This document shows, in pieces, positions 3,036-53,583 of a stretch of 64,000 bases of DNA. The notes below the pieces were generated by a model, which ran no database searches, was not told where the DNA came from, and was given only the letters and a program-made list of their open reading frames with translations. Both the position numbers and the translations under genes were made by a program. The DNA comes from an uncultured Acidobacteriota bacterium (lineage in GTDB: Bacteria; Acidobacteriota; Thermoanaerobaculia; UBA5066), in the NCBI GenBank assembly GCA_963801475.1, contig CAWDEX010000001.1, positions 2,118,271 through 2,182,270 on the forward strand, in the 5' to 3' direction. Every line of letters starts with the position of its first letter. The stretch's first letter is position 1.

Positions 3036-3776
3036 TCAGCCGAGGCTTCCGAGGAACCGGTAGCTCTTCAGCTCGTGGCCGAGAAACCGCCGCCGGATCT
3101 CGCGCGCCATCTCGTCGAGGGCGGCGAGGGCCCCGGCGTCTGCGGGCCGTGTCGCCACATCGGGGAGGGAGCCCTTCCGGAAGGCGGCAAGGAGCGGCCG
3201 GGCCGACGCCGGCACGGGAATCGCCCCGCGGCCGGCGCACTCGGGCGAGACGAACCCCGGGATCTCCGGGTCGAGACGCACGCTCCCCGGCGGGAGCGGC
3301 TCGCCGCACGCGGCGCAGACGACGTCGTCGGGAAGGAGCCCGGCGAACCGGAGGAGCCAGCTCTCGAAGTAGCGCGCCGCGACCGACGCCGGAACGCCGT
3401 CGCGGAGCGCGCCCAGGACGTGCCTCACGAGGCGGAAGACTTCGTCCCCCGGCTCGGCCTCGGGGACGAACGTCGCCGCGCTCTCGGCCACGTACGGCAG
3501 GAGCATCGCCGTCTCCTCCCGGGAGGCGAGGTCGAACGAGCTCCGGACGAGTTCGATCCCGTCGAGCCGCGCCAGGTCCGCCCCTTCCTTGCGGAAGAAG
3601 GTGACGGCGACCTCCGAGAGGAGCTGGAGCGAGGCCGCCCGCTTCGACGCGCCGCGCGCCCCGCGCACGGCGGCGCGGACGACCCCGTCACGCTCGGTCA
3701 GCAACGCCGCGACGAGGTCCTTCTCCGAAAGCGGGTCGAGCCTCAGAATGAAGGCGCGAGTGGCGAGGAGCGACAT
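3036..3776 (-). CDS. recO: DNA repair protein RecO
   Basis: The ORF is RecO-like from MSLLATRAFILRLDPLSEKD..., with an OB-fold N-terminus and a Cys-rich C-terminus (CAACGEPL...PECAGRG). The start was moved to the internal ATG at 3776; the listed ORF begins further upstream at a spurious start. Confidence 0.75.
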   Translation of the reverse strand: MSLLATRAFILRLDPLSEKDLVAALLTERDGVVRAAVRGARGASKRAASLQLLSEVAVTFFRKEGADLARLDGIELVRSSFDLASREETAMLLPYVAESAATFVPEAEPGDEVFRLVRHVLGALRDGVPASVAARYFESWLLRFAGLLPDDVVCAACGEPLPPGSVRLDPEIPGFVSPECAGRGAIPVPASARPLLAAFRKGSLPDVATRPADAGALAALDEMAREIRRRFLGHELKSYRFLGSLG

Positions 3777-5103
3777 CGTCCCCGATTCTCCCGCGACGGG
3801 CCGCCTTCCGCCCGCGGTCGTCCGGCTGGGGTGGGTCTCGTTCCTGACCGACGTCTCCTCCGAGATGATCGTCCCGCTCCTCCCGGCCTTCCTCGCCACC
3901 CTCCCGGGAGCGCCGGCCCGGGCTCTCGGCTGGATCGAGGGGATCGCGGAGACGACGGCTTCGGCCACGAAGATCCTCTCGGGCCGCTGGACGGACAGGG
4001 CCCGGGCCAAGAAGCCGCTCGTCCTGCTCGGCTACGGCCTCTCGTCGGTCGTCCGCCCCCTGATCGGCCTCGCCCCGAGCTGGCCGACGGTCGCGGTGAT
4101 CCGTTTCTTCGACCGGGTCGGGAAGGGAATCCGCGGCGCGCCCCGGGACACGATGATCGCCGCGGCCGCGCCTCCCGAACGGCGAGGCGCCGCCTTCGGC
4201 CTCCACCGCGCCTTCGACAACGCCGGCGCGGTCCTCGGCCCGCTGGTCGCCGCCGCGCTCGTCGGCCTCGCCGGCCTCTCCTTCCGGACCGTCTTTCTCC
4301 TGGCCGCAATTCCGGCGGTGTTCTCCTTCCTGGTTCTCGGATTCATGGTGAAGGAAAAGATTAGAAGGGATTCAGTCGGGGAGAAGGACCGAAAGAGCTC
4401 TTCGAAAGTTGAAGAGTCGACGGGCGGCGTGCCCTCCGACGCCAGCGCGCACTGTTTGAGCGAAGCGAGTTTGCGCGCCAAGGAGGAGGGGATGCCGCCA
4501 GGCGAACGCGCGGCGAGCGGTGTGCTGTCCGACGCCGGCGAACTTTCGCCCGCTTTCTGGCGTGTCGCAGGCGTCGTCGGTTTCTTCACGCTCGCCGCGT
4601 CGTCCGACACGTTCATCCTCCTCCGCGCCCGCGAGATCGGGATCGCAGCGGCATGGCTGCCGCTCCTCTGGGCCTTCTCGAACGCCGTGAAGTCGCTCTT
4701 CTCCACGTGGGGCGGCGGCCTCTCGGACCGCTTCGGGCGGCGGAGCCTTCTCCTCGCCGCGTGGGGCCTCTACGCCACCTGTTACGCGGCTTTCGCCGTC
4801 GTCACGAAGGCGGCCGTCTTCGTCGCGCTCGTGGGGGTCTACTCGCTCTACTACTCGCTCTCCGAGGGAACGGAGCGCGCGCTCGTCACGGACCTCGTCC
4901 CCTCCGCCTCGCGGGGCCGCGCCTTCGGCTGGCTGAACGGCCTGACGGGTCTCGCGGCCCTCCCGGCGAGCGCCGGCTTCGGCCTCCTGTGGGAGCGATT
5001 CGGCTCCGGGCCGGCGTTTCTCGCCGGGGCGGGGATCTCGGCCGCGGCCGCCGGGGCCCTTCTCGTCCTCGTCCCGGGCCGGCGCGCCGCAGGGAACCGC
5101 TAG
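3748..5103 (+). CDS. MFS transporter
   Basis: The protein has multiple hydrophobic helices and MFS-like loops (GRWTDRARAKKP, FFDRVGKGIRGAPRD). A long charged central loop is encoded by a locally lower-GC stretch. The start was chosen at the ATG at 3748, so the exact start is uncertain. Confidence 0.7.
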   Translation: MKARVARSDIVPDSPATGRLPPAVVRLGWVSFLTDVSSEMIVPLLPAFLATLPGAPARALGWIEGIAETTASATKILSGRWTDRARAKKPLVLLGYGLSSVVRPLIGLAPSWPTVAVIRFFDRVGKGIRGAPRDTMIAAAAPPERRGAAFGLHRAFDNAGAVLGPLVAAALVGLAGLSFRTVFLLAAIPAVFSFLVLGFMVKEKIRRDSVGEKDRKSSSKVEESTGGVPSDASAHCLSEASLRAKEEGMPPGERAASGVLSDAGELSPAFWRVAGVVGFFTLAASSDTFILLRAREIGIAAAWLPLLWAFSNAVKSLFSTWGGGLSDRFGRRSLLLAAWGLYATCYAAFAVVTKAAVFVALVGVYSLYYSLSEGTERALVTDLVPSASRGRAFGWLNGLTGLAALPASAGFGLLWERFGSGPAFLAGAGISAAAAGALLVLVPGRRAAGNR

Positions 5104-6413
5104 TCCTTCGCCTCCTCGAGCTGCTTCCGGATCGACGCGATCGTCCGGTCCGAGCGCTGCTCCGCCGGGAGCGCCTCCGCGTACGCCAGCATCTCCTGAA
5201 GTGTCTTCCTGGCGGCCTCGGCGTCGCCCTTCTTCTTCAGGAGATCGACGCGCGTGCGGTAGACGACGAGCTTTCGTGGCCCGTACGCCCGCGCCATCGC
5301 GCGGTCCGAGGCGGCGAGGGCGTCGTCGTACTTCTTCATCGCCCCGTAGGCGATGGCGAGGCGTTGCGGCGGGTTGTAGTCGTCCGGGAAATCCCTCTCG
5401 GAGGCGAGAAGCGCCGGGACGACGCGTTCGGGCTGGCCGAGCAGGAGCCAGACGGTCGTGAGGTGCGCGTCGAAAACGGCCCGCTCCGCGGGCGTCTTCG
5501 CCCTGGCGGTCTCGCCCTCGAGGTACGTGGCCCACGCCTCGAGGACCTTCTTCTCTCCGCCCTGGTCCTTCGCCGCACGCCGCTCCTCGGCGACCGTCTG
5601 GTAGACGGCCGAGACGTCGTCGGCCGCGAGACCGGCCTTCGGCCCCTCGAGAACCGACCGCGCGTCCGCCGCGAGGGCCGCGACGAGGGCGGCCTTCTTC
5701 GGCTCGCCGTCCTTCATCGAAAGGGCGCAGTCGAGACCGGAGCCCGCGACGTTTGCCGCCGACGGCGCGCCCCTGAGGCTCGCGAAGGCATCGCGCGCCG
5801 CCACGGCGCAGGCCTCGTGCTGCCCGCTGGAGGAGAGGGCGAACAGGAGGGATTCGACCGTCCGCGCGTACGAGGGCGATTCCGGGCGAAGCGTCCTGAG
5901 CGCCTCCCGATAGGCCGCGGCGGCCTCGGGGTTCTTCCCTTCAGCGAAGAGGCGATCCGCGTTCGCGAGGGCGGCCCCGGGAGCCCTGCCGCCCCCGGCC
6001 GCCTTCGCGCCGTCGTCGAGGATCCGGAGCATCTGCGGAGTCGTGGCGCCCCCGACCCAGCGGAAGACGATCTTTTCGGTCGCGGCGTCGATGACGTAGA
6101 ACGACGGCCAGACCTTGACCGGGTATTTCCCGAGAACGGCGGCGTTCTCGCGCTTCTCCGTGTTGATCGAGAGCCAGACGAACCGTCCGGCCTGCCGCCC
6201 GAGCGCCTTGTCCGTGAAGACGAAGGCCCTCATCGAACGGCACGTGTGTCACCAGGGCGCCCAGGCCTCGAGGAAGATCGGCTTCTTCGCGGACCGCGCC
6301 TCGGCGAGCGCCTTCGGGTAGTCGTCGGATATGAAGGGGAGGACTTCACCCCCGGACGCCGGCGCGGCCAGGAGGGCGGCGGCGAGCGCCGCCGGAAAGA
6401 GCGTCGTTCTCAT
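5100..6413 (-). CDS. secreted thioredoxin-fold/TPR protein, candidate selenoprotein (in-frame TGA=Sec at 6249-6251)
   Basis: Two same-frame ORFs (6249..6482 and 5100..6233) are separated only by a TGA. Read through, the sequence is ...KKPIFLEAWAPW-[TGA]-HTCRSMRAF..., so the TGA sits at the first Cys of the thioredoxin WCxxC motif. There is an N-terminal signal peptide (MRTTLFPAALAAALLAAPASG) and C-terminal TPR-like repeats. Confidence 0.6.
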
Positions 6414-6480
6414 GACGCGACTATACGGCCGCCTCCCGCCCGGCGCCCCGACAGGCCCCGGGCGAAGTAAGATCCCGGGC

Positions 6481-6729
6481 ATGTCCGGACCCGTCTGGAA
6501 GCGCCTCCGCCTCGAAGGGACGTGCGACGCCTGCGGCGCGGCGTCGAAGGAGCTCCTCGCCGTCGGAACCGTCGTCGACTTCTGTTTCCGCCCCGACTTC
6601 CGCTTCTGCCCCGCCTGCTACGAGCGGTACCGGGGCCGCCACGACGAGCTGCACCCCCAGGCCGTGGCCGAGCAGCAGAACCCGCCCGTGATCTCCCGGC
6701 CGTCCGGCGACTCGGATCTCCCCGAGTGA
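6481..6729 (+). CDS. small zinc-ribbon-like hypothetical protein (CxxC...CxxC)
   Basis: The 82-aa ORF reads MSGPVWKRLRLEGTCDACGA...FCPACYERY and has four Cys in two CxxC pairs. Its stop overlaps the start of the next gene. Confidence 0.4.
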   Translation: MSGPVWKRLRLEGTCDACGAASKELLAVGTVVDFCFRPDFRFCPACYERYRGRHDELHPQAVAEQQNPPVISRPSGDSDLPE

Positions 6730-18504: not shown

Positions 18505-19430
18505 AGGGCGCGGCCGCGGACGGGCCGGCGGGCCTCCTCCTCGTCGACAAGCCGGAGAAGCTGACCTCGCACGACGTCGTGGACGAGGGCCGCCGGCTGC
18601 TCGATCTGCGCCGCATCGGCCACACCGGGACGCTCGACCCGGCGGCGACCGGTCTTCTGGTCCTTTGCGTCGGGCGCGCCGTCCGGCTGCAGTCCTTTCT
18701 GACCGGGTTCGACAAGACGTACGAGGGCGAGATGCTCTTCGGCGTCGAGACGGACACCTATGACCGTGACGGAACTCCTGTCGGACCCCCGCACCCCGCC
18801 CCCGACCCCGACCCCGCGCGGCTCCGCGAGGAGGCGGCGCGGTTCACGGGAGAGTTCCTGCAGACGCCGCCGCCCTTCTCGGCGAAAAAGGTCGCGGGGC
18901 GGAAGTTCTACGACCTCGCCCGTCGGGGCGAGGCCGTGCCGCACGCCCCGAAGAGCGTGAAGGTCTCGGCCCTCGAGATCCTGGAGGTCCGTGGCCCTCG
19001 GGCGACGTTCCGGGTCTCCTGCTCCTCGGGAACCTACGTCCGTTCGCTGGTCCACGACATCGGCAAGGGCCTCGGCCCGGGCGCCCACCTCGTGGCGCTC
19101 CGGCGGACCGCCGTCGGCCCGTTCCGGCTCGAAGACGCCATCACGCTGGCGGGACTCGACGCGATTCCCGCCGGCGAGCGACTGATCCGCCCGCACTGGA
19201 TTCCCCTCGCCGGCATTCCGCTCCCGTACCCGAGCGTCCCGGTCGGGGCCGCGGAGGCGACGAAGGTCCGGCATGGAAACGCCGTCCCCGTCAGGCTCCC
19301 CGCCGGGGCGGCGGGCACCGGCTGGATCCGCCTCGAAGCCGGCGGCGAACTGATCGCCCTGGCGGAGCTCGAGCCGCTGGGAAGGGGGGCCGTCGCCCTG
19401 GCGCGTCCGAAGATCGTGCTCTCGGAGTGA
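18501..19430 (+). CDS. truB: tRNA pseudouridine(55) synthase TruB
   Basis: The protein begins GLLLVDKPEKLTSHDVVDEGRRLLDLRRIGHTGTLDPAATGLLVLCVG, which contains the catalytic Asp motif. A PUA-like C-terminus follows. Confidence 0.9.
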   Translation: MKGAAADGPAGLLLVDKPEKLTSHDVVDEGRRLLDLRRIGHTGTLDPAATGLLVLCVGRAVRLQSFLTGFDKTYEGEMLFGVETDTYDRDGTPVGPPHPAPDPDPARLREEAARFTGEFLQTPPPFSAKKVAGRKFYDLARRGEAVPHAPKSVKVSALEILEVRGPRATFRVSCSSGTYVRSLVHDIGKGLGPGAHLVALRRTAVGPFRLEDAITLAGLDAIPAGERLIRPHWIPLAGIPLPYPSVPVGAAEATKVRHGNAVPVRLPAGAAGTGWIRLEAGGELIALAELEPLGRGAVALARPKIVLSE

Positions 19431-19464
19431 GGCTGCCGCCGTAAAGCCCTGCGGTGCAGGAGGT

Positions 19465-19493
19465 TTGACCTTTCGAACCGGGCAGGTTAGAGT
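19465..19493 (+). promoter_or_regulatory. candidate sigma70-type promoter for rpsO (TTGACC-N17-TAGAGT)
   Basis: The -35 element TTGACC is at 19465-19470 and the -10 element TAGAGT at 19488-19493, with a 17-nt spacer. The pair lies about 40 nt upstream of the rpsO start. Confidence 0.5.
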
Positions 19494-19531
19494 TCGCCGT
19501 TCGAAAGTAGAGAAGAAGGGACAAGAAGACA

Positions 19532-22219: not shown

Positions 22220-23932
22220 TCAGGGTCCGGTCGCGACGTATCGGCGCTCGGGGGGAGCGATCCCCTCGGGCGCGACGCGCGTGAACGATCGCTCCCCGAG
22301 AAGCCAGGCGTAGACCGACTGCTCGCCCGCGGCGCGGTTCGGGTCGTCCCCCCCCTCCTCGAGGTAGCGCCGGATTTCGGCCGCGCCGGCCTCCGGGCCG
22401 GATCGTGCTTCCGCCAGCGTCCCGGCCACGATGGCGTCGGCCCAGCGATGGCGCGCGGTCGGGATCGGAGACGGGAGATACGCCGAGAGGGCACTGACGG
22501 CGAGAGTCGCGATCGAGAGACCGAGGGCGGGCAGGCGTCGGCGCGCGCGCCAGTCCTCGATCAGGAAGAAGACGAGCAGCCCGGCCCCGAGTGCGACCGG
22601 TGGTACGACGCCGACCCGGTAGCGTGCCGTCGTCTGGACGAGGAGGCACGCGACGACCGGAGTCGCAACCGCAAACGCCGCAAGCCAGGCTTCGTCCTTT
22701 CGGAGCGTGCCGCGCGCGACGGCCGCGAAGAGGCCGACGAGCCCCGCTCCGACGAGGCAGGGAAAGACCGGCAGGACCCGCAGGACGCCGATCCGGTCCC
22801 GGAAGAAGTACCAGTTGGAGTTGTCGGGAACCTCGTAGGCCAGGACGAACGTCGCCGCCTTCTTCGCCCAGAGGAGAGGAAGCTCCCACGGGGCATCGGC
22901 GTAGCCCTGCAGAACGAGCCGCGCCGTCTTCCCCGTCGAGCCTCCGGCCTTCTCCAGAATCCCCCTCATCGAAGAAGGGGGGGCCGTGGAGGCGTCCGCA
23001 CCGCGGCCGTTTCCCCAGGCGAGCCCGATCGCCTGCCGCGTGTCGAACGTCAGCGGCGGGACGCCGACGGCGAGGTTGCGCGCCACGAGAGCCGTCAAAG
23101 GGATCGCGAGGCCAAAGGCTCCGAGAGCGAATCGGCGCGTTGCGCCGACGGGGGACTTCTTCGAGAGTAGAAACACCGAAAGAAGCGCCAGCGGCAGGGT
23201 CGTCTGCTTGAGCAGCGCGGCAAAGCCCCCGAGGAGCCCGAGGAAGAACGTCCCGGTCTTCCCACGCGAGAAACAGCTCACGCGTTCGCTCTCCCCCGCC
23301 TCTGCGATCAGGGGCCAGGCGAGGAGGAGTGCCGAGACGTGCGCCACCGGCCCGTCCCTGTAAGCGAAGCCGTCCTGGAAGACGAGGGGGCCGTACACCC
23401 CGTAGAGGATCCCCGCAACGGTCCCGGCGGCCGCAGGGCCCAGAGAAGGCCATCCGACCCCCGGCGCATCGGCGTTCTTCTCCCTTTCTTCTCGGAGGAA
23501 TCTCCCGGCGACGGTCTGGCACGCCGCGGCGACGGCGGCCGCTGCGAGGCACGCGAGAAGAAGCTGGAGGATCCGGATCGTCGGAACGACCGGGAGGCCC
23601 GCGACCCGAAGGAGGGCGAGGCCGTAGGGATAGAGCGGTCCGGCGAAATAGGCGTTCTTCTGATAGAGGCTCTCCCACGCCTCCGGCGGACCGTAGGGAG
23701 TCTGCCAGGAGAAGTAAGACCTCCAGGCCGGGGCGTCCATCCAGTTTCCCGACGCCAGGTGGGCCGACCAGTCGACGTAACCCCACTCGTCCGTCTCCAT
23801 CCAGAGATGCCAGCCCGAGAGCGGCGACGCCTCGAGAGCGACGAAGTAGACGGATCGGACGGCGGCAACGACGACGAAGACGATCACCGGCACGAGCCGC
23901 CGCCACGTCTCCGGACGGTCGGTAAAGGGCAC
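22220..23932 (-). CDS. polytopic membrane protein, ArnT/PMT (GT39)-like glycosyltransferase family (tentative)
   Basis: The 570-aa protein has many predicted TM helices, with a large loop after TM1 and Tyr/Trp-rich periplasmic segments. The family assignment comes from architecture alone. Confidence 0.45.
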   Translation of the reverse strand: MPFTDRPETWRRLVPVIVFVVVAAVRSVYFVALEASPLSGWHLWMETDEWGYVDWSAHLASGNWMDAPAWRSYFSWQTPYGPPEAWESLYQKNAYFAGPLYPYGLALLRVAGLPVVPTIRILQLLLACLAAAAVAAACQTVAGRFLREEREKNADAPGVGWPSLGPAAAGTVAGILYGVYGPLVFQDGFAYRDGPVAHVSALLLAWPLIAEAGESERVSCFSRGKTGTFFLGLLGGFAALLKQTTLPLALLSVFLLSKKSPVGATRRFALGAFGLAIPLTALVARNLAVGVPPLTFDTRQAIGLAWGNGRGADASTAPPSSMRGILEKAGGSTGKTARLVLQGYADAPWELPLLWAKKAATFVLAYEVPDNSNWYFFRDRIGVLRVLPVFPCLVGAGLVGLFAAVARGTLRKDEAWLAAFAVATPVVACLLVQTTARYRVGVVPPVALGAGLLVFFLIEDWRARRRLPALGLSIATLAVSALSAYLPSPIPTARHRWADAIVAGTLAEARSGPEAGAAEIRRYLEEGGDDPNRAAGEQSVYAWLLGERSFTRVAPEGIAPPERRYVATGP

Positions 23933-45690: not shown

Positions 45691-47643
45691 TCAGGTCCAG
45701 TGAATCGTCTCCCGGGACCCCTCGCGCCCTTCGCCGGCCGCCGGAGCCCCGGCCGCCGGGGCCACACGCCCCAGCTCCGGGTAGAGCTCCAGCACCCTGG
45801 CCACGACGCCGGGGGCGTCGACCTTATAGAGGGCGCGCTGGAGGCTCTGCGGGCTGTGATCGACGAAGGTATCCGAGACGCCGTGGGTCCGGACGCCGTC
45901 CGCCGGCAGCCCGGCCGCGTGGATCGCTTCCAGAACGCCGCTCCCGAAGCCCCCCATGAGGAGGTGCTCCTCAAGGGTCAGGAGACGCGGCGAGGCGGCG
46001 AGAAGGCCCCGGATCAGCTCGACGTCGAGGGGTTTGGCGAAACGCGCATGCGCCACCCCGCAGTCGATCCCCTGACCCCGGAGCGCCTCGGCCGCCTTCT
46101 GCGCGACGGGCACCATCGCGCCGTAGGCGAGGAGGTTGAGGTCCCGCCCCGACGAGAGGATTTCCCCCGTTCCGATCGGGATCTCCCGCCGCCGTTCGTC
46201 CAGCGGCAGGCCGAGACCGGCGCCCCGGGGGAACCGGATCGTGAAAGGGCGGCCCGAGGCCACCGCCGTATGGAGGAGGTGCTGCAGCTCGTTCTCGTCC
46301 TTCGGGGCGGCCACCGTCATGTTCGGGATGCCGCGCGTGAAGGCGATGTCGTAGATCCCCTGGTGCGTCTTCCCGTCGTCCCCGACGAAGCCGGCCCGGT
46401 CGACGCAGACGACGACCGGCAGGTTCTGGAGGCAGACGTCGTGGATGAGCTGGTCGTACGAGCGCTGGAGGAAGGTCGAGTAAATGGAGACGACCGGCTT
46501 CAGCCCCGCCTTCGCCATGCCGCCCGCCATGATGATGGCGTGCTCCTCGGCGATTCCGACGTCGTACACCCGGTCCGGGAACCGTTTCTTCACCTCGACG
46601 AGCGCCGTCCCCTCCAGCATCGCCGCACTGATGCCGACGATCTTCGGGTCCTCCTCCATCAGGGCGATCAGCGTCTTCGCGAAGACCTGCGAGTACGTGT
46701 AGGCCGCCCCCGAGCCGGCCGCGGGGGACGGCGTCCCCGGCTGGTGGAACCGGGTCGGATTGTCCTCGGCGCGCGTGTATCCCCGCCCCTTGTGCGTCAG
46801 CGCGTGGATGACGACCGGCGTGCCGTCCGCCGACACGTCCTTCGCCCGGCCGAAGGCCTCCTCCATCTCCGTGTAGTCGTGGCCGTCGATCGGGCCGATG
46901 TAGTGAAACCCGAGCTCGTCCCAGATCAGGTTCGGGAAGAAGAGCCCCTCGACCGAGGCCTTCATCTTCTTGGCGAGGCCCCAGGCTTCTTCACCCTTCG
47001 GAAGGCGGCGGAAGAACTTGTGCCCGGCCTCGATGAACTTCTGGTAGTTCGGGTGGAGCTCGAAGCGGTTGCGCCAGTGGGCCATCCAGCCGACGTTCTC
47101 CGAGATGGACCAGCCGTTGTCGTTCAGGACGACGATGAGGCGCTTCGGCTTGACGTGGACGATGTTGTTCATCGCCTCGTAGCTCGTCCCGCAGGTCAGT
47201 GCCCCGTCCCCGACGATGACCACCGTGTACGGCTTGCCCGGATCGTCCTGCGACGCCGCGGCCATCCCCATGCCGTAGGAGAGGCCGGTCCCGGCGTGCC
47301 CCGCGGCCAGCGTGTCGTGCTCGCTCTCGGACGGCTCCGCGAATCCCGAGAGGCCTCCCGGCATCCGGACGGTCGGGAAGCGGTCCCGGCGCCCCGTCAC
47401 GAGCTTGTGCGTGTAGCACTGGTTCGAGGTGTCCCAGACGAACTTGTCCCGGGGGCTCTCGAAGGCGCGGTGGAGCGCCAGCGTCAGCTCGACGACGCCG
47501 AGGTTCGACGCGAGGTGTCCGCCAGTCTTCGTGATCGTCTCGATGATGAGGTTCCGGCAGTCCTGTGCGACCTGCGCCAGCTCGTCGTGGCTCAGGGCCT
47601 TCAGGTCCTGCGGCCCCTCGATGCGGCTCAGAATGTTCATCAA
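45691..47643 (-). CDS. dxs: 1-deoxy-D-xylulose-5-phosphate synthase
   Basis: The 650-aa protein has the TPP-binding motif (GDGALTCGTSYEAMNN) plus transketolase-like pyrimidine-binding and C-terminal domains. The N-terminus reads MMNILSRIEGPQDLKALSHDEL... Confidence 0.93.
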   Translation of the reverse strand: MMNILSRIEGPQDLKALSHDELAQVAQDCRNLIIETITKTGGHLASNLGVVELTLALHRAFESPRDKFVWDTSNQCYTHKLVTGRRDRFPTVRMPGGLSGFAEPSESEHDTLAAGHAGTGLSYGMGMAAASQDDPGKPYTVVIVGDGALTCGTSYEAMNNIVHVKPKRLIVVLNDNGWSISENVGWMAHWRNRFELHPNYQKFIEAGHKFFRRLPKGEEAWGLAKKMKASVEGLFFPNLIWDELGFHYIGPIDGHDYTEMEEAFGRAKDVSADGTPVVIHALTHKGRGYTRAEDNPTRFHQPGTPSPAAGSGAAYTYSQVFAKTLIALMEEDPKIVGISAAMLEGTALVEVKKRFPDRVYDVGIAEEHAIIMAGGMAKAGLKPVVSIYSTFLQRSYDQLIHDVCLQNLPVVVCVDRAGFVGDDGKTHQGIYDIAFTRGIPNMTVAAPKDENELQHLLHTAVASGRPFTIRFPRGAGLGLPLDERRREIPIGTGEILSSGRDLNLLAYGAMVPVAQKAAEALRGQGIDCGVAHARFAKPLDVELIRGLLAASPRLLTLEEHLLMGGFGSGVLEAIHAAGLPADGVRTHGVSDTFVDHSPQSLQRALYKVDAPGVVARVLELYPELGRVAPAAGAPAAGEGREGSRETIHWT

Positions 47644-47735
47644 AGCGTCCTTAGCTCCCGCGGCGGACGCGGGAGCCGCGAATCATACTCCAGCAAAGCG
47701 GGTCTTCGAGGCCGCCGCCAGGGCCTTCGGGCGCC

Positions 47736-48638
47736 TCAGCGCGCCGGAACGGCCGGCGTGCCCCGGTCGAGGGCGTGCTTCAGCCGGCGAGTGATCAGGA
47801 AGAGCTCCGGACGCGAGACTTTCGCGCCGGGCCCCTTCTCCTCGACCTTCCCGAGCGTCGCGCGGGCGAGGAGCACGGGGAGGGCGCAGAACTCCACGAG
47901 GCCGCGCGGAGCGCCCGCCCCCTGAAGGATGCCGATGTACTCCGCCGCCACGCCGAGATCCTGGCGGGCGAGGGCGAACACCTCGGACACCGGAACGGAC
48001 GCGGGGAGGTACCGCCGCCCCTCCGCCGCATCGTCCGCCGCGTCCTTCAGGATGTTCACGAGCTGCAGCGCTTCGCCGAACGCCGCCGCGCGGGACCGGA
48101 GCGCCCCGGCGGAGGAGTCAAGGTGCGGGCGGGCGAGGAGGAAGAGCTCGGTCAGCATCTCGCCGACGATGCCGGCCACGAAGTAGCAGTAGCGCCGGAG
48201 CTCCGGAAGGCCCGGCAGGGCGAGACGACCGTCGTGCGTTGCCGCCACGTACTCCCCCATGCCGTCCGACGACCGGATGACGTGCTCGCGGATGGACGCC
48301 ACGGCCTCGGGCGAAAGCGAAAAGAAGGCGCTGAGGACGAAGGGCACTTCGGCGATCAGCTCGCGGTACCCCTCGTGCTCCGCCGGCCGCGCAGCACTCC
48401 ACGCCGCAGCGAGGCGGGCGGACTCGGCCGAATCGTTCTCGCGGAGAAGTCGCTCGAAGTCCGAAAGGGCCTCGATCCGGCGCTCGACCGGCCAGTGGGA
48501 CGCGTCCTCGAACGTGTCGGCGATCCGGAAAAGGAGGTAGGCGATCATCACCTCGCGACGCGTCGGCTCCGGAAGGACCGGTATCGAGAGCGCGAACGTG
48601 CGGCTCGTCTTCCCGAGAAGGCCTTCGAGAGTCGGCAC
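47736..48638 (-). CDS. squalene/phytoene synthase family protein (HpnC/HpnD-like)
   Basis: The 300-aa protein has an isoprenoid synthase class-1 fold with Asp-rich regions (LFRIADTFED, YCYFVAGIVGEMLTELF, NILKDAADDAAEGRRYLP). It sits in a hopanoid gene context. Confidence 0.75.
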   Translation of the reverse strand: MPTLEGLLGKTSRTFALSIPVLPEPTRREVMIAYLLFRIADTFEDASHWPVERRIEALSDFERLLRENDSAESARLAAAWSAARPAEHEGYRELIAEVPFVLSAFFSLSPEAVASIREHVIRSSDGMGEYVAATHDGRLALPGLPELRRYCYFVAGIVGEMLTELFLLARPHLDSSAGALRSRAAAFGEALQLVNILKDAADDAAEGRRYLPASVPVSEVFALARQDLGVAAEYIGILQGAGAPRGLVEFCALPVLLARATLGKVEEKGPGAKVSRPELFLITRRLKHALDRGTPAVPAR

Positions 48639-48640
48639 GC

Positions 48641-49447
48641 TCAGATCTTCTCCGGAAGGAGCCGCTCAAGGAAGTGGCCGAGCGTCCCCGCCCCCTCCCG
48701 GACCCGCCGGCGTACCCGGAGGAGCTTCGGGAGCGCCGAGGGGCGCCGGACCAGCCGGCGCGCGACGGCCGCACGGTTGATCGAGCCGTCCCTCGAGAGA
48801 CAGAGCGCGAGAAACCCCGGGAGCTCCTCCTCGAAGGAGTCCGAAACGGCGCGAAGAATCGCATAGGGTATGCCGTGCTTCGCCGCGGCGCGTGCCCATG
48901 CCGCCGACTCCATGTCGACGACCGCGGCGACGCCCGGATCGACGCCGAAGCGAAGCGCAACCTCGCTCCTCTCCCTTGAATTACAGGCCGGTCTCGCCCA
49001 CGTCACGAACGTCGCCGGCTTCGCTCCGAGGACGACGGCCCGGGAGAGCCATCCGGCGTCGGGAGGAGGGGCATCGCCCTGCTCGTCGACGACGCGCGAG
49101 GCGACGACGATTTCTCCCGCGCCGAGGGACGACACGAGCGCCCCGGCCGCGCCGACGCCGATAAGGAGGGAGACTGCGGATTCCCCCAGAAGGAGAGTCG
49201 CCCCGCGCTCGGCCCGCATTCCGCCGTCGCCGGTCATCGCGAGAAGGACGGGCACGCCGGAGAGTCTTCCTCGGAGAAGAAACCTCCGTTCGCCCTTGCG
49301 TGCGCGGCCGTGCATCGGGTCGGCGACGCATTTTTCGATCGCGTGGAATTCCTCCCGGATCGCCGTCACGATGGCGGTGAGCCCCGCGCGGGCCGCCGGC
49401 GGGTGCGACGGGTGCTTCATCCCGCCCCCCGGCTCAGGCGCGAACAT
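48641..49447 (-). CDS. hpnG: hopanoid-associated phosphorylase/nucleosidase HpnG (PNP/UDP family)
   Basis: The protein has the purine nucleoside phosphorylase/MTA nucleosidase fold (..VDMESAAWARAAAKHGIPYAILRAVSD..). It is embedded between hpnA and the squalene-synthase-family gene. Confidence 0.7.
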   Translation of the reverse strand: MFAPEPGGGMKHPSHPPAARAGLTAIVTAIREEFHAIEKCVADPMHGRARKGERRFLLRGRLSGVPVLLAMTGDGGMRAERGATLLLGESAVSLLIGVGAAGALVSSLGAGEIVVASRVVDEQGDAPPPDAGWLSRAVVLGAKPATFVTWARPACNSRERSEVALRFGVDPGVAAVVDMESAAWARAAAKHGIPYAILRAVSDSFEEELPGFLALCLSRDGSINRAAVARRLVRRPSALPKLLRVRRRVREGAGTLGHFLERLLPEKI

Positions 49448-50453
49448 GGCCGTTCTCCCGAAACCAGGTGACGGCGCGCCCGAGGGCGCCCTCGACCGGG
49501 CTCTGCGGGAGCCCCAGCTCGCGCACGGCCTTCGACGCGTCGAAGAACATCCGGTGCCGCGACATTCGGACGCTCTCGAGGCTGACGCGTGGCGGGCGCC
49601 CGAGGAGCCCGGCGACGAACGTGTCGACGGCGGCGACCGCCAGGGGGACGGCGTGCGGCAGGCGGACCCGCGGCGCGGAGAGGCCGGTGATCCGGGAGAG
49701 CGCTTCGAGGATCTCCTTCAGGGTCATGTTCCGGTGTCCGAGGATGTACTTCTCCCCCGTCCGCCCCTTCTCGGCTGCGAGTAGGTGCCCCGCGGCCACG
49801 TCGTGAACGTCGACGAGGTTCAGGCCCGTGTCGACGTAGGCCGGGAGCCTCCCGTTCAGGAAGTCGACGACGAGCTGTCCGGTCGGCGTCGGCTTCACGT
49901 CGAGCTCGCCGACCGGCGTGGACGGGTTCACGATGACGACGGGGAGTCCGCGGGCCGCCCACGCCTCGGCGACCCGCTCGGCGTCGTACTTGCTCTTCTT
50001 GTAGTGGCCGACGACCTCCTCACGGGCGACGGGCGTCGTCTCGTCGGCCGGCGAACCGTCCGGCCGCAGCCCCAGCGCCCCGACGGAGCTCGTGTAGACC
50101 ACGCGCGAGACGCCGGCCTCCCCGGCGGCCGCCAGGACATTCTCCGTACCGCCGACGTTCGCCCGGAAGAGCTCGCCGGGGTCCTTCGTCCAGAGCCGGT
50201 AGTCCGCCGCCACGTGGTAGAGCGTCGATACGCCGCGAACCGCGCGCCCGAGGGAGGCCCGGTCGGCGAGGTCTCCCTCGGCGATCTCCACGGGAAGGCC
50301 TTCCAGATTCGCGCGCCGGCTCGACGGGCGGACGAGGCAGCGGACCGGTTCCCTCCGCGCCAGGAGGGCCCTCACCACGTGGGCGCCGACGAATCCTGTC
50401 CCGCCCGTGACCAGATTCAAGGTCTCACCCGTCTGCTCAAGCGAGGGGGGCAC
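49434..50453 (-). CDS. hpnA: hopanoid-associated NAD-dependent sugar epimerase/dehydratase HpnA
   Basis: The protein has a Rossmann fold with the motifs GGTGFVGAHVVRAL and YKKSKYDAE (YxxxK). It lies next to hpnH and hpnG. Confidence 0.7.
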   Translation of the reverse strand: MPPSLEQTGETLNLVTGGTGFVGAHVVRALLARREPVRCLVRPSSRRANLEGLPVEIAEGDLADRASLGRAVRGVSTLYHVAADYRLWTKDPGELFRANVGGTENVLAAAGEAGVSRVVYTSSVGALGLRPDGSPADETTPVAREEVVGHYKKSKYDAERVAEAWAARGLPVVIVNPSTPVGELDVKPTPTGQLVVDFLNGRLPAYVDTGLNLVDVHDVAAGHLLAAEKGRTGEKYILGHRNMTLKEILEALSRITGLSAPRVRLPHAVPLAVAAVDTFVAGLLGRPPRVSLESVRMSRHRMFFDASKAVRELGLPQSPVEGALGRAVTWFRENGHVRA

Positions 50454-50510
50454 GGAGGGTGCGACCCCGGCTTCGCGACCTGCCCCGAGGGACTTCGCAC
50501 CCCCCGAGTA

Positions 50511-51518
50511 TCACGCCACCAGGTCGAGGTTCCAGGCGATGAGCCGGACCATGTCGCCCGGGCTCTTCGGGAGCTCCTTCACGACCGAGGCCTCGAATCC
50601 CGAGTGCATGAGGCAGTTCGCGCAGAGGGGGTCCTTCCGCGACTCCCAGTAAGCCCAGTCGGTCCCGTTCCAGAACTCCTCGTACGTCTCCGACCAGGTC
50701 TTGCCGATGAGATAGCAGGGGCCCTTCCACCCCTTCGGGGTGTAGGTCACGGTGCTCCAGGGAGAGCACTTGTACTCCCGGAGCCCCGCCGCGAACTCGA
50801 GGAACATCGGCGTGGAGGTGAGCCGGTAGGACTTCGAGATCTCGAGGATCCGCCGGAACTTCCGGTGGATCTCGGACTTGGTCAGGAAGATCTGGGCGCC
50901 CACCGACTCGTAGTGATAGCCCGGCGAGACGAGCATCCCCTCGACGCCGAGGTCCGTCAGGAACCGGCAGAGCTCCTCGACCTCCTCGACGCTCGTCTCC
51001 TTGAAGACCGTCGTGTTCGCCATGACGTGGTGGCCGAGCTTCACGCCTTCCCGGATCATGGCGACGGCCTTGTCGAACGTTCCCTCCTTGGCGCAGACGT
51101 AGTCGTGCGTCTCCCGCATCCCGTCGAGGTGAACGTTGATCATCAGCCGCTTGTGCGGCGGGAGGACGCCGTAGACGGTCTCGTCCAGGAGGAGCCCGTT
51201 CGTGCAGAGGTAGATGTGGCGCTTCCGCTCGATGATGCCGGAGACGAGCTCGGAGAGCTCCGGGTAGAGCGTCGGCTCGCCCCCGCAGATGGAGACGACC
51301 GGCGCCCGGGAGACGTCGACCGCCTCGAGGCATTTCTTGAGCGGAAGGCGGTCCTTCAGCTTTCCCGTGTGGCGCTCCACCGCGCAGCCGAGGCAGGCGA
51401 GATTGCAGGTATAGAGCGGCTCCAGCATCAGGACGAACGGGTACCGCTTCTTCCCCCGGACGGCGTTCCGCACCTGGTGCGAGATCGTGTCCGTCATGAT
51501 GTGGGCCGGGAATCTCAT
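50511..51518 (-). CDS. hpnH: adenosylhopane synthase HpnH (radical SAM)
   Basis: The protein has the motif YPFVLMLEPLYTCNLACLGCAV (CxxxCxxC) and a conserved C-terminal Cys cluster (CSPW...GPCYL...CANCLMH). It sits immediately downstream of shc. Confidence 0.85.
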   Translation of the reverse strand: MRFPAHIMTDTISHQVRNAVRGKKRYPFVLMLEPLYTCNLACLGCAVERHTGKLKDRLPLKKCLEAVDVSRAPVVSICGGEPTLYPELSELVSGIIERKRHIYLCTNGLLLDETVYGVLPPHKRLMINVHLDGMRETHDYVCAKEGTFDKAVAMIREGVKLGHHVMANTTVFKETSVEEVEELCRFLTDLGVEGMLVSPGYHYESVGAQIFLTKSEIHRKFRRILEISKSYRLTSTPMFLEFAAGLREYKCSPWSTVTYTPKGWKGPCYLIGKTWSETYEEFWNGTDWAYWESRKDPLCANCLMHSGFEASVVKELPKSPGDMVRLIAWNLDLVA

Positions 51519-51522
51519 CGCG

Positions 51523-53583
51523 TCAGTCCCTTTTCTTCGCGGCCGCGCGCCTCACGCCGGCGAATCCGCCCGCCCGGGACCCCGCCGTCCCTTCGACGCG
51601 CCCGTAGAGCGACAGCGCCCAGAGGGGGAAGTAGGTCGCGTAGAGATGGTAACGAAGGTAGAAGACCTTCGGAAAGCCCGTCCCGGTCCAGTGAGCGTCC
51701 CGCCACGAACCGTCGTACTGCTGCTCCCGGAGAAGGTACGCCACGCCGCGCTCGACGCTTTCGGAGCGGTCCTCCCCGAGCGTGAAGAGCGCCATCAGCG
51801 CCCAGGCCGTCTGGGCGGCCGTCGAGGGGCCGCGGCCCTTCGTGGACGGATCGTCGTACGAGCGCGGCAGCTCGCCCCACCCGCCGTCGGCGTTCTGGTG
51901 GGCGCGCAGCCACGCGGCGGCCCGCTGGTAGCGCGGCTGATCCAGGTCCTCCCCCGCGTGCGCGAGGCCCCGGAGGACGAGCCACGTCCCGTAAATGTAG
52001 TTGACGCCCCACCGCCCGTACCACGTGCCGTCCCGCTCCTGCTTCTCCTTCAGGAAGGAGACGGCGGCGCGCACCGCCGGGTGGGACGGCGGGACGCCGA
52101 GGTTGTGGAGCGCCTCGAGCGCCCGGCCGCTGATGTCCTCGCAGCTCGGGTCCAGCATCGCGTTGTGGTCGGCGAAGGGGATGTAGGTCAGGACCTCGAG
52201 GTCACACCCCTTGTCGAAGGCTCCCCAGCCGCCGTCCCGGTTCTGCATCGACAGGAGCCAGCCCAGCCCCCGCTCGATGGCCTCGACGCGGCGCGCTTCC
52301 TCCGGCGCCTCGGCGAACCGGACGCGGGAGAGCGCCGTCAAGACCTCGGCCGTGTCGTCCGTGTCGGGATAGAACTCGTTGGCGTACTCGAAGTACCAGC
52401 CGCCGACCGGCCCGTCGGGGTTCGCCTTCTTCCAGTCGCCCGGGAGGCGGATCTCCCGGTCGAGGAGCCAGCGGGCCGCGAGGCGAAGAGAGGCGTCGTC
52501 GGCCGGCGCGCCCGATTCCGACAAGGCGACGGCGGCGATGGCCGTGTCCCAGACCGGTGAGAAGCAGGGCTGCACCCGGAGCGTGTCGTCGTCCTCGATC
52601 TCGAACCGCTCGAGCTCGTGCACCTGGGCGAGAAGCCGCGGGTCGTCCAGGCCGTATCCGAGGCAGCGGAAGGCGAAGATCGTGTTGACGATCGGCGGAA
52701 AGATCGCACCGAGCCCGTCGCTCCGGACGAGCCGGTCGTGAATCCAGGTTTCGCAGCCGGCGAGCGCCCTCTTCCGGAAGGGCTTCAGGCCGGCCGCCTC
52801 GAGCCCCCGAAGGACCACGTCGGCGGTCGTGAAGATCCCGCGCCAGAACCGCTCGCGGGGAGTCCGCCTCCGCTCCGGGTGGAAGTGAGGGACGTGAAGC
52901 TCCGGGATCTCCGCGTGGGCCGGCACCGGACAGAACGGCTTGGTGGCCCAGATGACCGAGAGAGGTACCACGATCGTCCGGGACCATGACGACATCCGGT
53001 AGATGTTGAACGGGATCCAGTCGGGCAGGAGGACCAGTTCCGGAGGTACGGCCGGGCAGCGGCTCCAGTCACACTGGCCGAAGATGGCCAGATAGATCTT
53101 GGTGAAGGAGTTGCACGCCTCCACGCCGCCCATCCGGCGGATCACTTCGCGCGCCTTCGACATGTGCGGCGCGTCCGGCGCATCGCCTACGAGCTTCAGG
53201 ACGAAGTACGCTTTCACCGACGTCGAGACGTCGGCCGGACCCCCCGGGTAGTTCGGCCAGCCCCCCTCGGGGAGCTGCTGCCGGCGGAGGTACTCCGCGG
53301 CTTTCTTTACCCGGGCTTCCCCGGTCCGACCGAGGAAGTGCATCGTCAGGACGTACTCGGACTCCAGGATCGTGTCGCCTTCCAGCTCCGCGCACCAGTG
53401 CCCGTCAGGGTACTGGATCGAAAGGAGATAGCGGCGAGCGGCAGCGACCGAGAAGCGGACCCGGTCGGCCGTCGGCTCTCCCCTGGATACACCCGGAGCG
53501 GCCTGCGGATCGCTCATAGACGGGCGGATCGTAAGGGACCTCACAGAATCGCGCAAGTCGGGACCTCCATCCTGAGACTCCAT
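51523..53583 (-). CDS. shc: squalene-hopene cyclase
   Basis: The 686-aa protein has multiple QW repeats, the catalytic motif DDTAEV (DxDDTA), and the motifs GGWGAFD and GRWGVNYIYGT. Confidence 0.93.
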   Translation of the reverse strand: MESQDGGPDLRDSVRSLTIRPSMSDPQAAPGVSRGEPTADRVRFSVAAARRYLLSIQYPDGHWCAELEGDTILESEYVLTMHFLGRTGEARVKKAAEYLRRQQLPEGGWPNYPGGPADVSTSVKAYFVLKLVGDAPDAPHMSKAREVIRRMGGVEACNSFTKIYLAIFGQCDWSRCPAVPPELVLLPDWIPFNIYRMSSWSRTIVVPLSVIWATKPFCPVPAHAEIPELHVPHFHPERRRTPRERFWRGIFTTADVVLRGLEAAGLKPFRKRALAGCETWIHDRLVRSDGLGAIFPPIVNTIFAFRCLGYGLDDPRLLAQVHELERFEIEDDDTLRVQPCFSPVWDTAIAAVALSESGAPADDASLRLAARWLLDREIRLPGDWKKANPDGPVGGWYFEYANEFYPDTDDTAEVLTALSRVRFAEAPEEARRVEAIERGLGWLLSMQNRDGGWGAFDKGCDLEVLTYIPFADHNAMLDPSCEDISGRALEALHNLGVPPSHPAVRAAVSFLKEKQERDGTWYGRWGVNYIYGTWLVLRGLAHAGEDLDQPRYQRAAAWLRAHQNADGGWGELPRSYDDPSTKGRGPSTAAQTAWALMALFTLGEDRSESVERGVAYLLREQQYDGSWRDAHWTGTGFPKVFYLRYHLYATYFPLWALSLYGRVEGTAGSRAGGFAGVRRAAAKKRD

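Follow-up and report, generated by a model that had tools for sequence, protein, structure and literature searches.

A probable thioredoxin-fold UxxC selenoprotein with a C-terminal TPR-like superhelix in Acidobacteriota, and a candidate two-part recoding signal downstream of its UGA codon

Introduction

Known thioredoxin-fold selenoproteins of the UxxC type carry selenocysteine (Sec) in place of the N-terminal cysteine of a CxxC motif, commonly have cysteine orthologues, and keep their selenocysteine insertion sequence (SECIS) within the coding sequence downstream of the UGA codon. A 2026 inventory of 119 prokaryotic selenoprotein families includes thioredoxin, thiol:disulfide interchange protein, thiol-disulfide isomerase-like protein and Trx7/PDZ, and Acidobacteria are on record as selenoprotein users (PMC1794560 Table 2; PMC12013277). 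Here we analyse a stretch of 64,000 nucleotides (the window) from an uncultured Acidobacteriota bacterium of the class Thermoanaerobaculia (assembly GCA_963801475.1, contig CAWDEX010000001.1, positions 2,118,271 to 2,182,270), in which a minus-strand gene with one in-frame UGA encodes a thioredoxin-fold protein with the UGA at the first redox position. The gene resembles the known UxxC selenoproteins in all of the above respects, and is unlike them in that the thioredoxin domain is preceded by a predicted signal peptide and followed by a C-terminal tetratricopeptide repeat (TPR) superhelix of about 310 residues. We hold with great confidence that it is a genuine selenoprotein gene.

The signal that accompanies a recoded UGA in bacteria (bSECIS) has been condensed into a consensus with an apical loop of 3-9 nucleotides, an upper stem of 4-16 base-pairs, a G in the first two loop positions that is usually followed by G or U, a distance of 16-37 nucleotides from the UGA to the apical loop, and a minimum free energy (MFE) of -7.5 kcal/mol or lower (PMC13188914). 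Canonical SECIS elements are reported for 87.4% of the entries of BSepDB, so that about 12.6% are without one (PMC13326102). Neither the 119-family table nor the main texts of the deep-Sep and BSepDB papers list a TPR-containing family by name, as far as that table and those texts go, and homology-based catalogues may count genes of the present kind under a generic thioredoxin family. Our literature search returned nothing for Thermoanaerobaculia combined with selenocysteine, nor for selenoprotein combined with tetratricopeptide and UxxC, and in the literature searched we found no description of a SECIS arrangement with a spacer hairpin such as the one proposed below.

Results

A UGA codon alternates with cysteine codons at a thioredoxin active site

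The minus strand of the window reads ...GCG CCC TGG TGA CAC ACG TGC CGT TCG ATG AGG..., with the TGA at 6251..6249 lying in frame between an open reading frame (ORF) at 6249..6482 and another at 5100..6233. The product of the frame read across the TGA is ...KKPIFLEAWAPW-[UGA]-HTCRSMRAFVF.... A first-pass annotation, made by a model from the letters of the window, had described two same-frame minus-strand ORFs split by a single TGA at 6249-6251, as the sequence and the joining of the ORFs also have it, and had placed this UGA at the first redox cysteine of a thioredoxin-fold UxxC motif. The latter proposal is now backed by Sec/Cys alternation among relatives, a conserved protein upstream of the UGA, a constraint on the RNA that is linked to the Sec form, and components of Sec decoding found in relatives.

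Each GTDB species was represented by a single genome when orthologous DNA was collected. A relative is encoded in at least 217 of these species-representative genomes, of which the best 80 were used. The aligned codon is TGA in 62 of these loci, TGC in 17 and TGT in one; it alternates with cysteine codons only, never with those for Trp or Gly. At least nine Sec/Cys switches are required on a neighbour-joining tree under Fitch parsimony, and a pattern scan of metagenome contigs, which matched at least 120 stretches, added at least 90 further distinct family members with TGA. The frame upstream of the codon stays open in every TGA locus, where it encodes the conserved ..LPFIxDDYxKALxxAxxxxxPIFxEAWAPW; 30 codons upstream and 382 codons downstream of the TGA are conserved as protein in the 62 TGA-bearing orthologues. 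The five codons between the TGA and the following ATG (HTCRS) are invariant, and W54, C55, H56, T57 and C58 are invariant columns in the protein alignment (A1).

A protein search covered 5.8 billion proteins, of which the best 120 matches were considered. Most of these are 374-382 residues long and cover 86% of the query, and the short matches that were inspected all start at MRAFVFTDK, whose Met is the first one to follow the TGA. A minority of 442-452 residues read EAWAPW-C-HTCRSM, and P0008, P0009, P0012 and others are single ORFs with Cys aligned to the UGA (WAPW-C-HTC). Public names of the shortened product are "tetratricopeptide repeat protein", "thiol reductase thioredoxin" or "hypothetical protein"; because the public annotation is shortened in this way, the catalytic domain and the selenium dependence are invisible there. 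One further match (P0051, 470 residues) carries an unrelated C-terminal extension, suggesting a frameshift or fusion call.

On comparison with homologues, the true start is most likely the ATG at 6413..6411 (MRTTLFPAALAAALLAAPASGG...) and not 6482, since the N-termini of the full-length Cys homologues P0008, P0009 and P0012 match there, and since a frame extended to 6482 runs into the divergent gene that begins at 6481. Full-length homologues begin with MSTTLFRAALAAALMAAPA... or MRTTPFRAALAAAL..., and both N-termini agree with this ATG. With the start at 6413, the stretch before the UGA is 54 residues long, and not 77 as the first-pass annotation had it. A sigma-70 scan upstream of ATG 6413 found no full promoter. 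A TATAGT stands 6 nucleotides upstream of this ATG (window 6414-6430, minus strand), where no more than about 68 nucleotides separate the gene from its divergent neighbour, and the leader of the mRNA may be very short or absent. The parts of the gene are as follows.

5100..6413, minus strand: the whole recoded gene, 437 codons of which one is the UGA (Sec55); its stop TAG lies at 5102..5100
6348..6413, minus strand: signal peptide of the Sec (export) type, predicted by inspection (MRTTLFPAALAAALLAAPASGG), with a basic n-region and then an Ala/Leu-rich hydrophobic stretch
6042..6335, minus strand: thioredoxin-fold domain, residues about 27-124, from Pfam, the profile and fold match to 2kuc, and the AlphaFold model
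6249..6251, minus strand: codon 55, UGA predicted to be read as selenocysteine (TGA 62, TGC 17 and TGT 1 of 80 orthologues)
6240..6251, minus strand: active-site motif U-H-T-C (UxxC), invariant columns, at the start of helix alpha-1 in the model
5103..6041, minus strand: all-helical TPR-like superhelix, residues about 125-437, from a TPR_12 match below cutoff, the model and Foldseek
5100..5103, both strands: CTAG, overlapping stops of this gene (minus) and the convergent MFS transporter gene (plus, 3589..5103)

With the TGA read through, the best Pfam match is Thioredoxin_7 (PF13899) at 37.5 bits (cutoff 27), followed by Thioredoxin at 26.1 bits (cutoff 23.5), both of them extending across the TGA; PF13098 stays under its cutoff. 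TPR_12 reaches 25.1 bits over residues 351-413 (E 2e-5), under its cutoff of 30.1. The AlphaFold2 model used here is that of the Cys orthologue P0008, which is 78% identical to the window protein; it has a predicted local distance difference test score (pLDDT) of 88.7 and a predicted template modelling score (pTM) of 0.83, with residues 1-24 disordered at pLDDT below 50. It shows a thioredoxin fold of the order beta-alpha-beta-alpha-beta-beta-alpha, in which the motif stands where helix 1 begins, and a C-terminal part of 17 helices, mostly above pLDDT 90, that form a TPR-like superhelix. The Foldseek matches of the helical part are TPR superhelices, and the thioredoxin domain is closest to PDB entry 2kuc, with Trx2 and the C-terminal domain of DsbD next. 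A signal-peptide-like N-terminus of the Sec export type, judged by inspection, is present in all full-length homologues and is conserved in kind, not in sequence. The predicted upstream signal peptide, the TPR-like downstream part and the CTAG stop overlap with the convergent MFS gene, all three noted in the first-pass annotation, were found again in the homologues, in the structure model with its Foldseek matches, and in the sequence, respectively. The protein is most likely a thiol-disulfide oxidoreductase of the cell envelope.

A hairpin downstream of the UGA is conserved with the Sec form

RNA positions are counted from the U of the UGA as +1, so that the window coordinate equals 6252 minus the position. 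Two RNA alignments were used, with 63 genome-derived sequences (A2) and 91 metagenome sequences (A4). Three structures are referred to below.

+61..+79 (6173..6191), minus strand: hairpin 2 (H2), GCCGGAC-[G/A]GUUC-GUCUGGC with a GGUUC loop in the window, the proposed SelB-binding SECIS hairpin
+9..+60 (6192..6243), minus strand: hairpin 1 (H1), a long irregular hairpin, the candidate spacer by which H2 would be brought close to the UGA
+25..+47 (6205..6227), minus strand: hairpin GCCUUCGUC..GACAAGGC of the first-pass annotation, here the apical part of H1

Across 153 Sec-form sequences, H2 is the one element that all of them conserve. In the window it folds at -11.8 kcal/mol (z -3.87; mean over Sec forms -12.7), its loop lies at 6184..6180, and the loop residues G69 and U70 show no variation (62 of 62 and 91 of 91 sequences). 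Its seven pairs are all intact in 62 of the 63 genome-derived Sec forms and in each of the 91 A4 sequences, RNAalifold recovers the hairpin in both alignments, and its distance from the UGA is constant in all 112 family matches. By contrast, H2 is kept in just 2 of 21 Cys forms, both of them singleton lineages, and it has decayed to 3-6 pairs in seven of the nine Cys lineages. To judge by these sequences, the link between H2 and Sec is replicated phylogenetically.

The same link is seen at synonymous sites. In a scan of 411 seven-codon windows across the whole gene, the minimum of synonymous diversity among Sec forms falls at codons +17..+22 (0.077-0.096, against a mean of 0.407 with a standard deviation of 0.093), while Cys forms show 0.36-0.54 at these codons. 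In Sec forms, the bases at positions +63 (C), +66 (A or G) and +75 (C or U) always preserve the pairs, whereas Cys forms encode the same amino acids at H2 with GCG, GGC and GTG, by which pairs are broken. Two pairs of H2 covary in A4, the more diverse set. Here the pair +66/+74 is A-U in 66 sequences, G-U in 18 and G-C in 7, and is never unpaired, and the Val-to-Ala change from GUC to GCC within H2 is always accompanied by GGG. The loop-closing pair +68/+72 is G-C in 54 sequences, A-U in 17 (CAG with the rare TTT) and A.C in 20. The covariation score of the whole structure in A4 is 0.138, against 0.105 +/- 0.003 in shuffles, and was reached by none of 500.

Two orthologues in the Cys form (TGC; L016 10133 and L083 783) have an intact H2 and an H1 with hardly any change. 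In these two, Cys appears to have replaced Sec very recently, although base-call or assembly differences are another possibility. Seven loci of the TGA form with an intact H2 (L046, L054, L058, L059, L061, L067 and L077) come from metagenome-assembled genomes (MAGs) labelled Candidatus Eisenbacteria, Krumholzibacteriia or Udaeobacter, and these labels reflect either a horizontal spread outside Acidobacteriota or differences in binning and labelling. A metagenomic family member (L171, ~4999) has a frameshift within the H1 region.

H2 was held against the loop, stem, loop-G, spacing and MFE rules of the bSECIS consensus (PMC13188914 Fig. 2A). It forms either a 7 base-pair stem with a 5-nucleotide loop or, with G68-C72 closed, an 8 base-pair stem with a 3-nucleotide loop, both within the loop and stem ranges; the loop [G/A]-G-U-U-C has its G where the consensus places it, and the folding energy of -11.8 kcal/mol lies below the MFE limit. 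The range of 16-37 nucleotides to the loop holds no rule-obeying hairpin that is common to all Sec forms. An out-of-frame TGA in AUGAGG, 38 nucleotides before H2, was dismissed because it is in a non-coding frame and missing from many members, and a permissive Rfam scan of 6100-6300 gave chance-level matches only.

A hairpin of the same type occurs at canonical spacing in a second gene. Two TGA-form loci (L035 at ~12284 and L063 at ~12246, both minus strand) carry in their flanks a gene of 249 residues of the PrdB/GrdB family (Pfam GRDB 37 bits against a cutoff of 22; TIGR04483 E 7.5e-40) with a TGA at the UxxC site of the family, ..LLVPV-U-PMCHQT... In L035 the hairpin AUCAGAC-GGUCG-GUCUGAU starts 10 nucleotides after this UGA, with its loop at 17 nucleotides, and shares with H2 the apex GAC-GGUnn-GUC. 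Given that the apex is shared at canonical spacing, the SelB of this lineage appears to use such hairpins at normal spacing elsewhere; by sequence, the thioredoxin-TPR gene has the same hairpin type displaced by about 47 nucleotides. These comparisons make it probable that H2 is the SelB hairpin.

A second hairpin fills the interval between the UGA and H2

H1 of the window folds at -28.7 kcal/mol (z -4.05). The segment +4..+60 folds into one closed domain in 145 of 145 distinct Sec forms, with a mean of -27.6 kcal/mol, against -17.9 in Cys forms, -19.3 in third-position shuffles and -16.1 kcal/mol in full shuffles. A single domain with at most 13 unpaired nucleotides is found in 100% of Sec forms, 71% of Cys forms, 68% of third-position shuffles and 39% of full shuffles. 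In the minimum-energy folds, the UGA is separated from H2 by just 5-13 unpaired nucleotides (median 7) and one helix junction. In a divergent subfamily (R-F-M...V-K-H), H1 is closed by another helix, GCUUCAUG/CGUGAAGC, in another register, and this alternative closing helix points to selection for the architecture, not the sequence. The fold of -9..+72 as one piece was unremarkable (z -0.89), since only half of H2 falls within that segment; with proper limits, the segments reach significance.

The first-pass annotation had taken the hairpin GCCUUCGUC..GACAAGGC, said to begin about 17-20 nucleotides 3' of the UGA, as the SECIS. The hairpin exists (-9.2 kcal/mol, z -3.5), with a measured start 21 nucleotides after the UGA, and a conserved stem-loop does follow the UGA; the named hairpin is the variable apex of H1, however, and the family-wide element is H2 at 6191..6173. 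The pairs of the named hairpin are formed in 88.5% of cells in A2 and 71.3% in A4, its loop UCAC is without a G, its outer pairs are broken in 43-66 of the 91 A4 sequences, RNAalifold does not predict it in either alignment, and its column-wise covariation in the genome set is no better than in shuffles.

These measurements bear on the alternative that the gene is a selenoprotein gene with H1 as its functional SECIS, and that H2 is accessory or unrelated, for example a pause or stability element. Although the apical loop of H1 (+35..+38) lies 31 nucleotides after the UGA and so within the 16-37 nucleotide range, neither of the first two positions of that loop (UCAC or UUCACG) is a G, and many members of the family have a broken apical helix, as just described. 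The greater stability of H1 in Sec than in Cys forms and the low synonymous diversity of Sec forms over codons -3 to +26, a zone extending beyond H2, would agree with such a role; against it, the Sec forms do not all share a rule-obeying hairpin in the canonical range, and the PrdB-like gene in the same lineage has a hairpin that resembles H2, not H1. We consider H1 as the functional SECIS improbable and keep H2 as the candidate SelB hairpin.

Decoding machinery and other readings of the TGA

In the 64-kb window, an Rfam gathering scan and a tRNA search found no Rfam family and no tRNA gene, and none of 20 non-ribosomal ORFs scanned with Pfam is SelA, SelB or SelD, in line with the first-pass remark that selA, selB, selD and tRNA-Sec are not visible there. 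A tblastn search with an unverified E. coli SelD query gave no match in the window or the 80 loci, which is a weak negative. A relative with the TGA form, Acidobacteria bacterium gp7 AA9 (L070), has a tRNA-Sec gene 10 kb away from its orthologue (19410-19507, minus strand), called SeC(tca) with anticodon UCA by ARAGORN and scoring 69.5 bits against the Rfam model RF01852 (threshold 47); this contig ends 170 nucleotides beyond the tRNA-Sec gene. Other TGA-interrupted ORFs with redox-like motifs in the window and the loci were mostly adjacent same-frame genes (recO/glyQ, rpoB/rpoC), and the PrdB-like gene was the only real extra selenoprotein from that search. An apparent interrupted ORF of 2,180 residues was rejected as an ordinary junction, at which the stop TGA of rpoB (61685-61687, minus strand) is followed by same-frame rpoC.

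Three readings dispense with Sec insertion at this codon. The locus could hold two genes, with a secreted peptide of 54-77 residues ending at the TGA and an independent TPR protein of 377 residues starting from ATG 6233, a view that is implicit in public annotation. An ATG does stand six codons after the TGA, and gene callers in dozens of assemblies have annotated only the C-terminal product of 374-382 residues. However, such a split would cut the thioredoxin fold one residue before the active site, and the piece upstream of it is protein-conserved and always in frame. The 18 orthologues with a Cys codon among the 80, together with P0008, P0009 and P0012, are single ORFs, so that the two halves are not seen as separate genes in homologues, a possibility that the first-pass annotation had allowed for; the HTCRS codons between the TGA and this ATG are invariant, and a Sec-specific RNA structure follows the TGA. 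We judge the two-gene reading very improbable.

Reading of the UGA in other ways, through a code reassigned to Trp or Gly, near-cognate read-through or insertion of Cys, is likewise given very little probability. Under selenium shortage some systems place Cys at Sec codons, and in this genome, of which the 64-kb window was scanned, Sec machinery was not seen. Against these points, TGA ends many ordinary genes of the window, for example rpoB at 61685, and the codon alternates with cysteine codons only; a reassigned code is therefore excluded in our view. Furthermore, relatives carry a tRNA-Sec and a second selenoprotein gene, and the downstream hairpin has a loop of the SelB type. The weakest reading, to which we give next to no credence, is that the TGA stems from an error of sequencing or assembly (TGC read as TGA), or marks a pseudogene with a nonsense mutation of recent date: TGA and TGC are one base apart, but the same TGA recurs independently in 62 species-level genomes and at least 90 distinct metagenomic contigs, and both halves are under purifying selection with normal synonymous diversity (mean 0.41) outside the SECIS zone. 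The pattern of TGA across genomes therefore leaves no room for the error that the first-pass annotation had considered, for a pseudogene, or for two independent genes.

Genes around the locus

The convergent gene at 3589..5103 (plus strand) matches MFS_1 (E 8e-36). On the divergent side, a Cys-rich ORF of 82 residues (..CDACG..CPAC..; 6481-6729, plus strand) has no Pfam match and lies directly upstream of a radical SAM gene similar to MqnC/CofH (to 7943). The pair of small Cys-rich ORF and radical SAM gene is also present in one of the orthologous loci (L081).

The window as a whole is a housekeeping region with glyQS, recO, the MFS gene, htrA, tonB, rimP-nusA, pnp, rpoA, ribosomal protein genes, tuf, fusA, dxs, hopanoid genes, an efflux system, rpoB and rpoC. 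An isoprenoid/hopanoid cluster at 45691-53583 (minus strand) comprises dxs, a squalene/phytoene synthase-like gene, a gene of the NAD-dependent epimerase family, a radical SAM gene with DUF3463 (HpnH-like) and a squalene-hopene cyclase gene, and is followed by an outer-membrane efflux gene and an HlyD-type gene. An ORF of 570 residues at 22220-23932 (minus strand) has a coding-like base composition and no Pfam match at E 1e-5.

Discussion

We propose that 6413..5100 on the minus strand is one gene, whose product would consist of a signal peptide, a thioredoxin domain with Sec55-His-Thr-Cys58 at its active site, and the TPR superhelix. The UGA at 6251..6249 would be decoded as selenocysteine by the bacterial SelB/tRNA-Sec pathway, under the direction of a signal that occupies the next 80 nucleotides of coding sequence in two parts. 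In this scheme H2, with 7-8 base-pairs and a small loop with invariant G and U, would be bound by SelB, while H1 would fold into a closed domain that leaves about 5-13 unpaired nucleotides between the UGA and H2 and so mimics the usual short spacing. The layout plausibly arises because codons +1..+13 after Sec (HTCRSMRAFVFTD) encode the constrained helix alpha-1 and leave no room for a SelB hairpin, and the stretch A-G-R/Q-F-V-W-L would be the first that permits one. In the mature enzyme, Sec55 would act as the attacking nucleophile and Cys58 as the resolving residue, and the TPR domain may hold a client or partner protein. As a whole, the account of one exported Sec protein of 437 residues, with SelB/tRNA-Sec decoding and a two-part downstream signal, appears highly probable to us. 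The reading frame, the alternation of Sec and Cys, the Sec-linked constraint on the RNA and the fold are seen in the data, whereas the binding of SelB to H2, bridging by H1, export and the biochemical role are inferred. The parts of the account differ in strength: that H1 serves as a bridging spacer is, in our estimation, evenly poised between true and false, and we are equally divided over whether the two hairpins make up a bipartite bacterial SECIS, in which a SelB-type hairpin 57 nucleotides after the UGA, at roughly double the largest spacing of the consensus, is made functional by the conserved hairpin that intervenes.

Several points weigh against this account. H2 lies 57 nucleotides (stem) and 64 nucleotides (loop) from the UGA, outside the 16-37 nucleotides of the consensus. 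Its invariance is partly protein-driven because its 3' arm encodes the conserved V-W-L, and just two of its eight pairs are able to show covariation. In the main family, the columns of the lower H1 stem do not covary significantly (no better than shuffles), so that the case for H1 is thermodynamic and comparative, and the bridging geometry is uncertain because a ribosome with the UGA in its A site should have opened the first pairs of H1. The 64-kb window contains neither a sel gene nor tRNA-Sec, and Sec machinery is seen only in relatives whose orthologues are 53-60% identical. As to the protein, the signal peptide and the putative envelope location were assigned by inspection only. Across the loci and the window, no conserved gene neighbour points to a substrate, and the position of the gene relative to the radical SAM and MFS genes differs between the window and L081.

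The protein is widespread in soil and sediment Acidobacteriota, in Thermoanaerobaculia and their relatives, and is also found in Eisenbacteria and Krumholzibacteriia MAGs. Correcting the annotation adds a family of the order signal peptide-Thioredoxin_7-TPR to the bacterial selenoproteome, and a selenium requirement to a little-studied but abundant soil lineage. The gene also provides a natural test case for "non-canonical" bacterial SECIS elements, with a gene of canonical spacing in the same lineage for comparison, and the at least nine Sec/Cys switches, with hairpin decay after most of them, give a replicated picture of the loss of a recoding signal. If the bipartite arrangement is true, it would represent a distinct class of SECIS, in which recoding by SelB tolerates a long linear distance that is shortened by RNA structure. 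It would then explain how Sec can evolve where the protein downstream is too constrained for a hairpin, and why structure-based predictors miss such genes.

Compared with the consensus bSECIS, of which E. coli fdhF is the archetype, H2 fits N1-G-U-N-N2 when G68-C72 is closed, and is unlike it in having its loop 64 nucleotides from the UGA with a conserved 52-nucleotide hairpin in the gap. On the protein side, the described selenoprotein family Trx7/PDZ (NF041199) likewise joins a domain of the Thioredoxin_7 type to a protein-binding domain and has Sec in its redox motif, but there the motif is CxxU and the partner PDZ, whereas here they are UxxC and TPR, and the window protein scores 17.8 bits where 300 are required. 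The present family is without an NCBIfam model of its own, and other selenoprotein models score far below their cutoffs, with 29.4 against 805 for TsoB (NF045694) and 19.1 against 275 for VPGUxxT (NF041383). The closest structure of the catalytic domain is 2kuc (profile E 4e-14, 26% identity, TM 0.75, root-mean-square deviation (rmsd) 2.5 Å), a Bacteroides thetaiotaomicron protein described as a putative disulphide isomerase, which differs in being a single domain of 130 residues with Cys and without TPR.

The only solved structures that match over two domains, an N-terminal thioredoxin domain and then TPR, are YbbN/CnoX of E. coli (3qou) and Salmonella (3qdn), with a Foldseek E of 1.7e-5, and this likeness suggests a redox domain coupled to a client-binding scaffold. 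CnoX is cytoplasmic, its TPR domain is shorter, and the E. coli form is without CxxC; the thioredoxin-TPR protein described here, unlike CnoX, has a predicted signal peptide and UxxC. The PDB profile search gave no sequence-level match to YbbN/CnoX, and the superposition is poor (TM 0.2-0.3, rmsd 22-23 Å), so that the domain arrangement must differ. YbbN/CnoX is therefore an analogue with a shared architecture, and the protein is not a member of that family. We place the gene among the thioredoxin-fold UxxC selenoproteins, a known kind, to which it brings a new architecture, and its SECIS layout may be a new variant.

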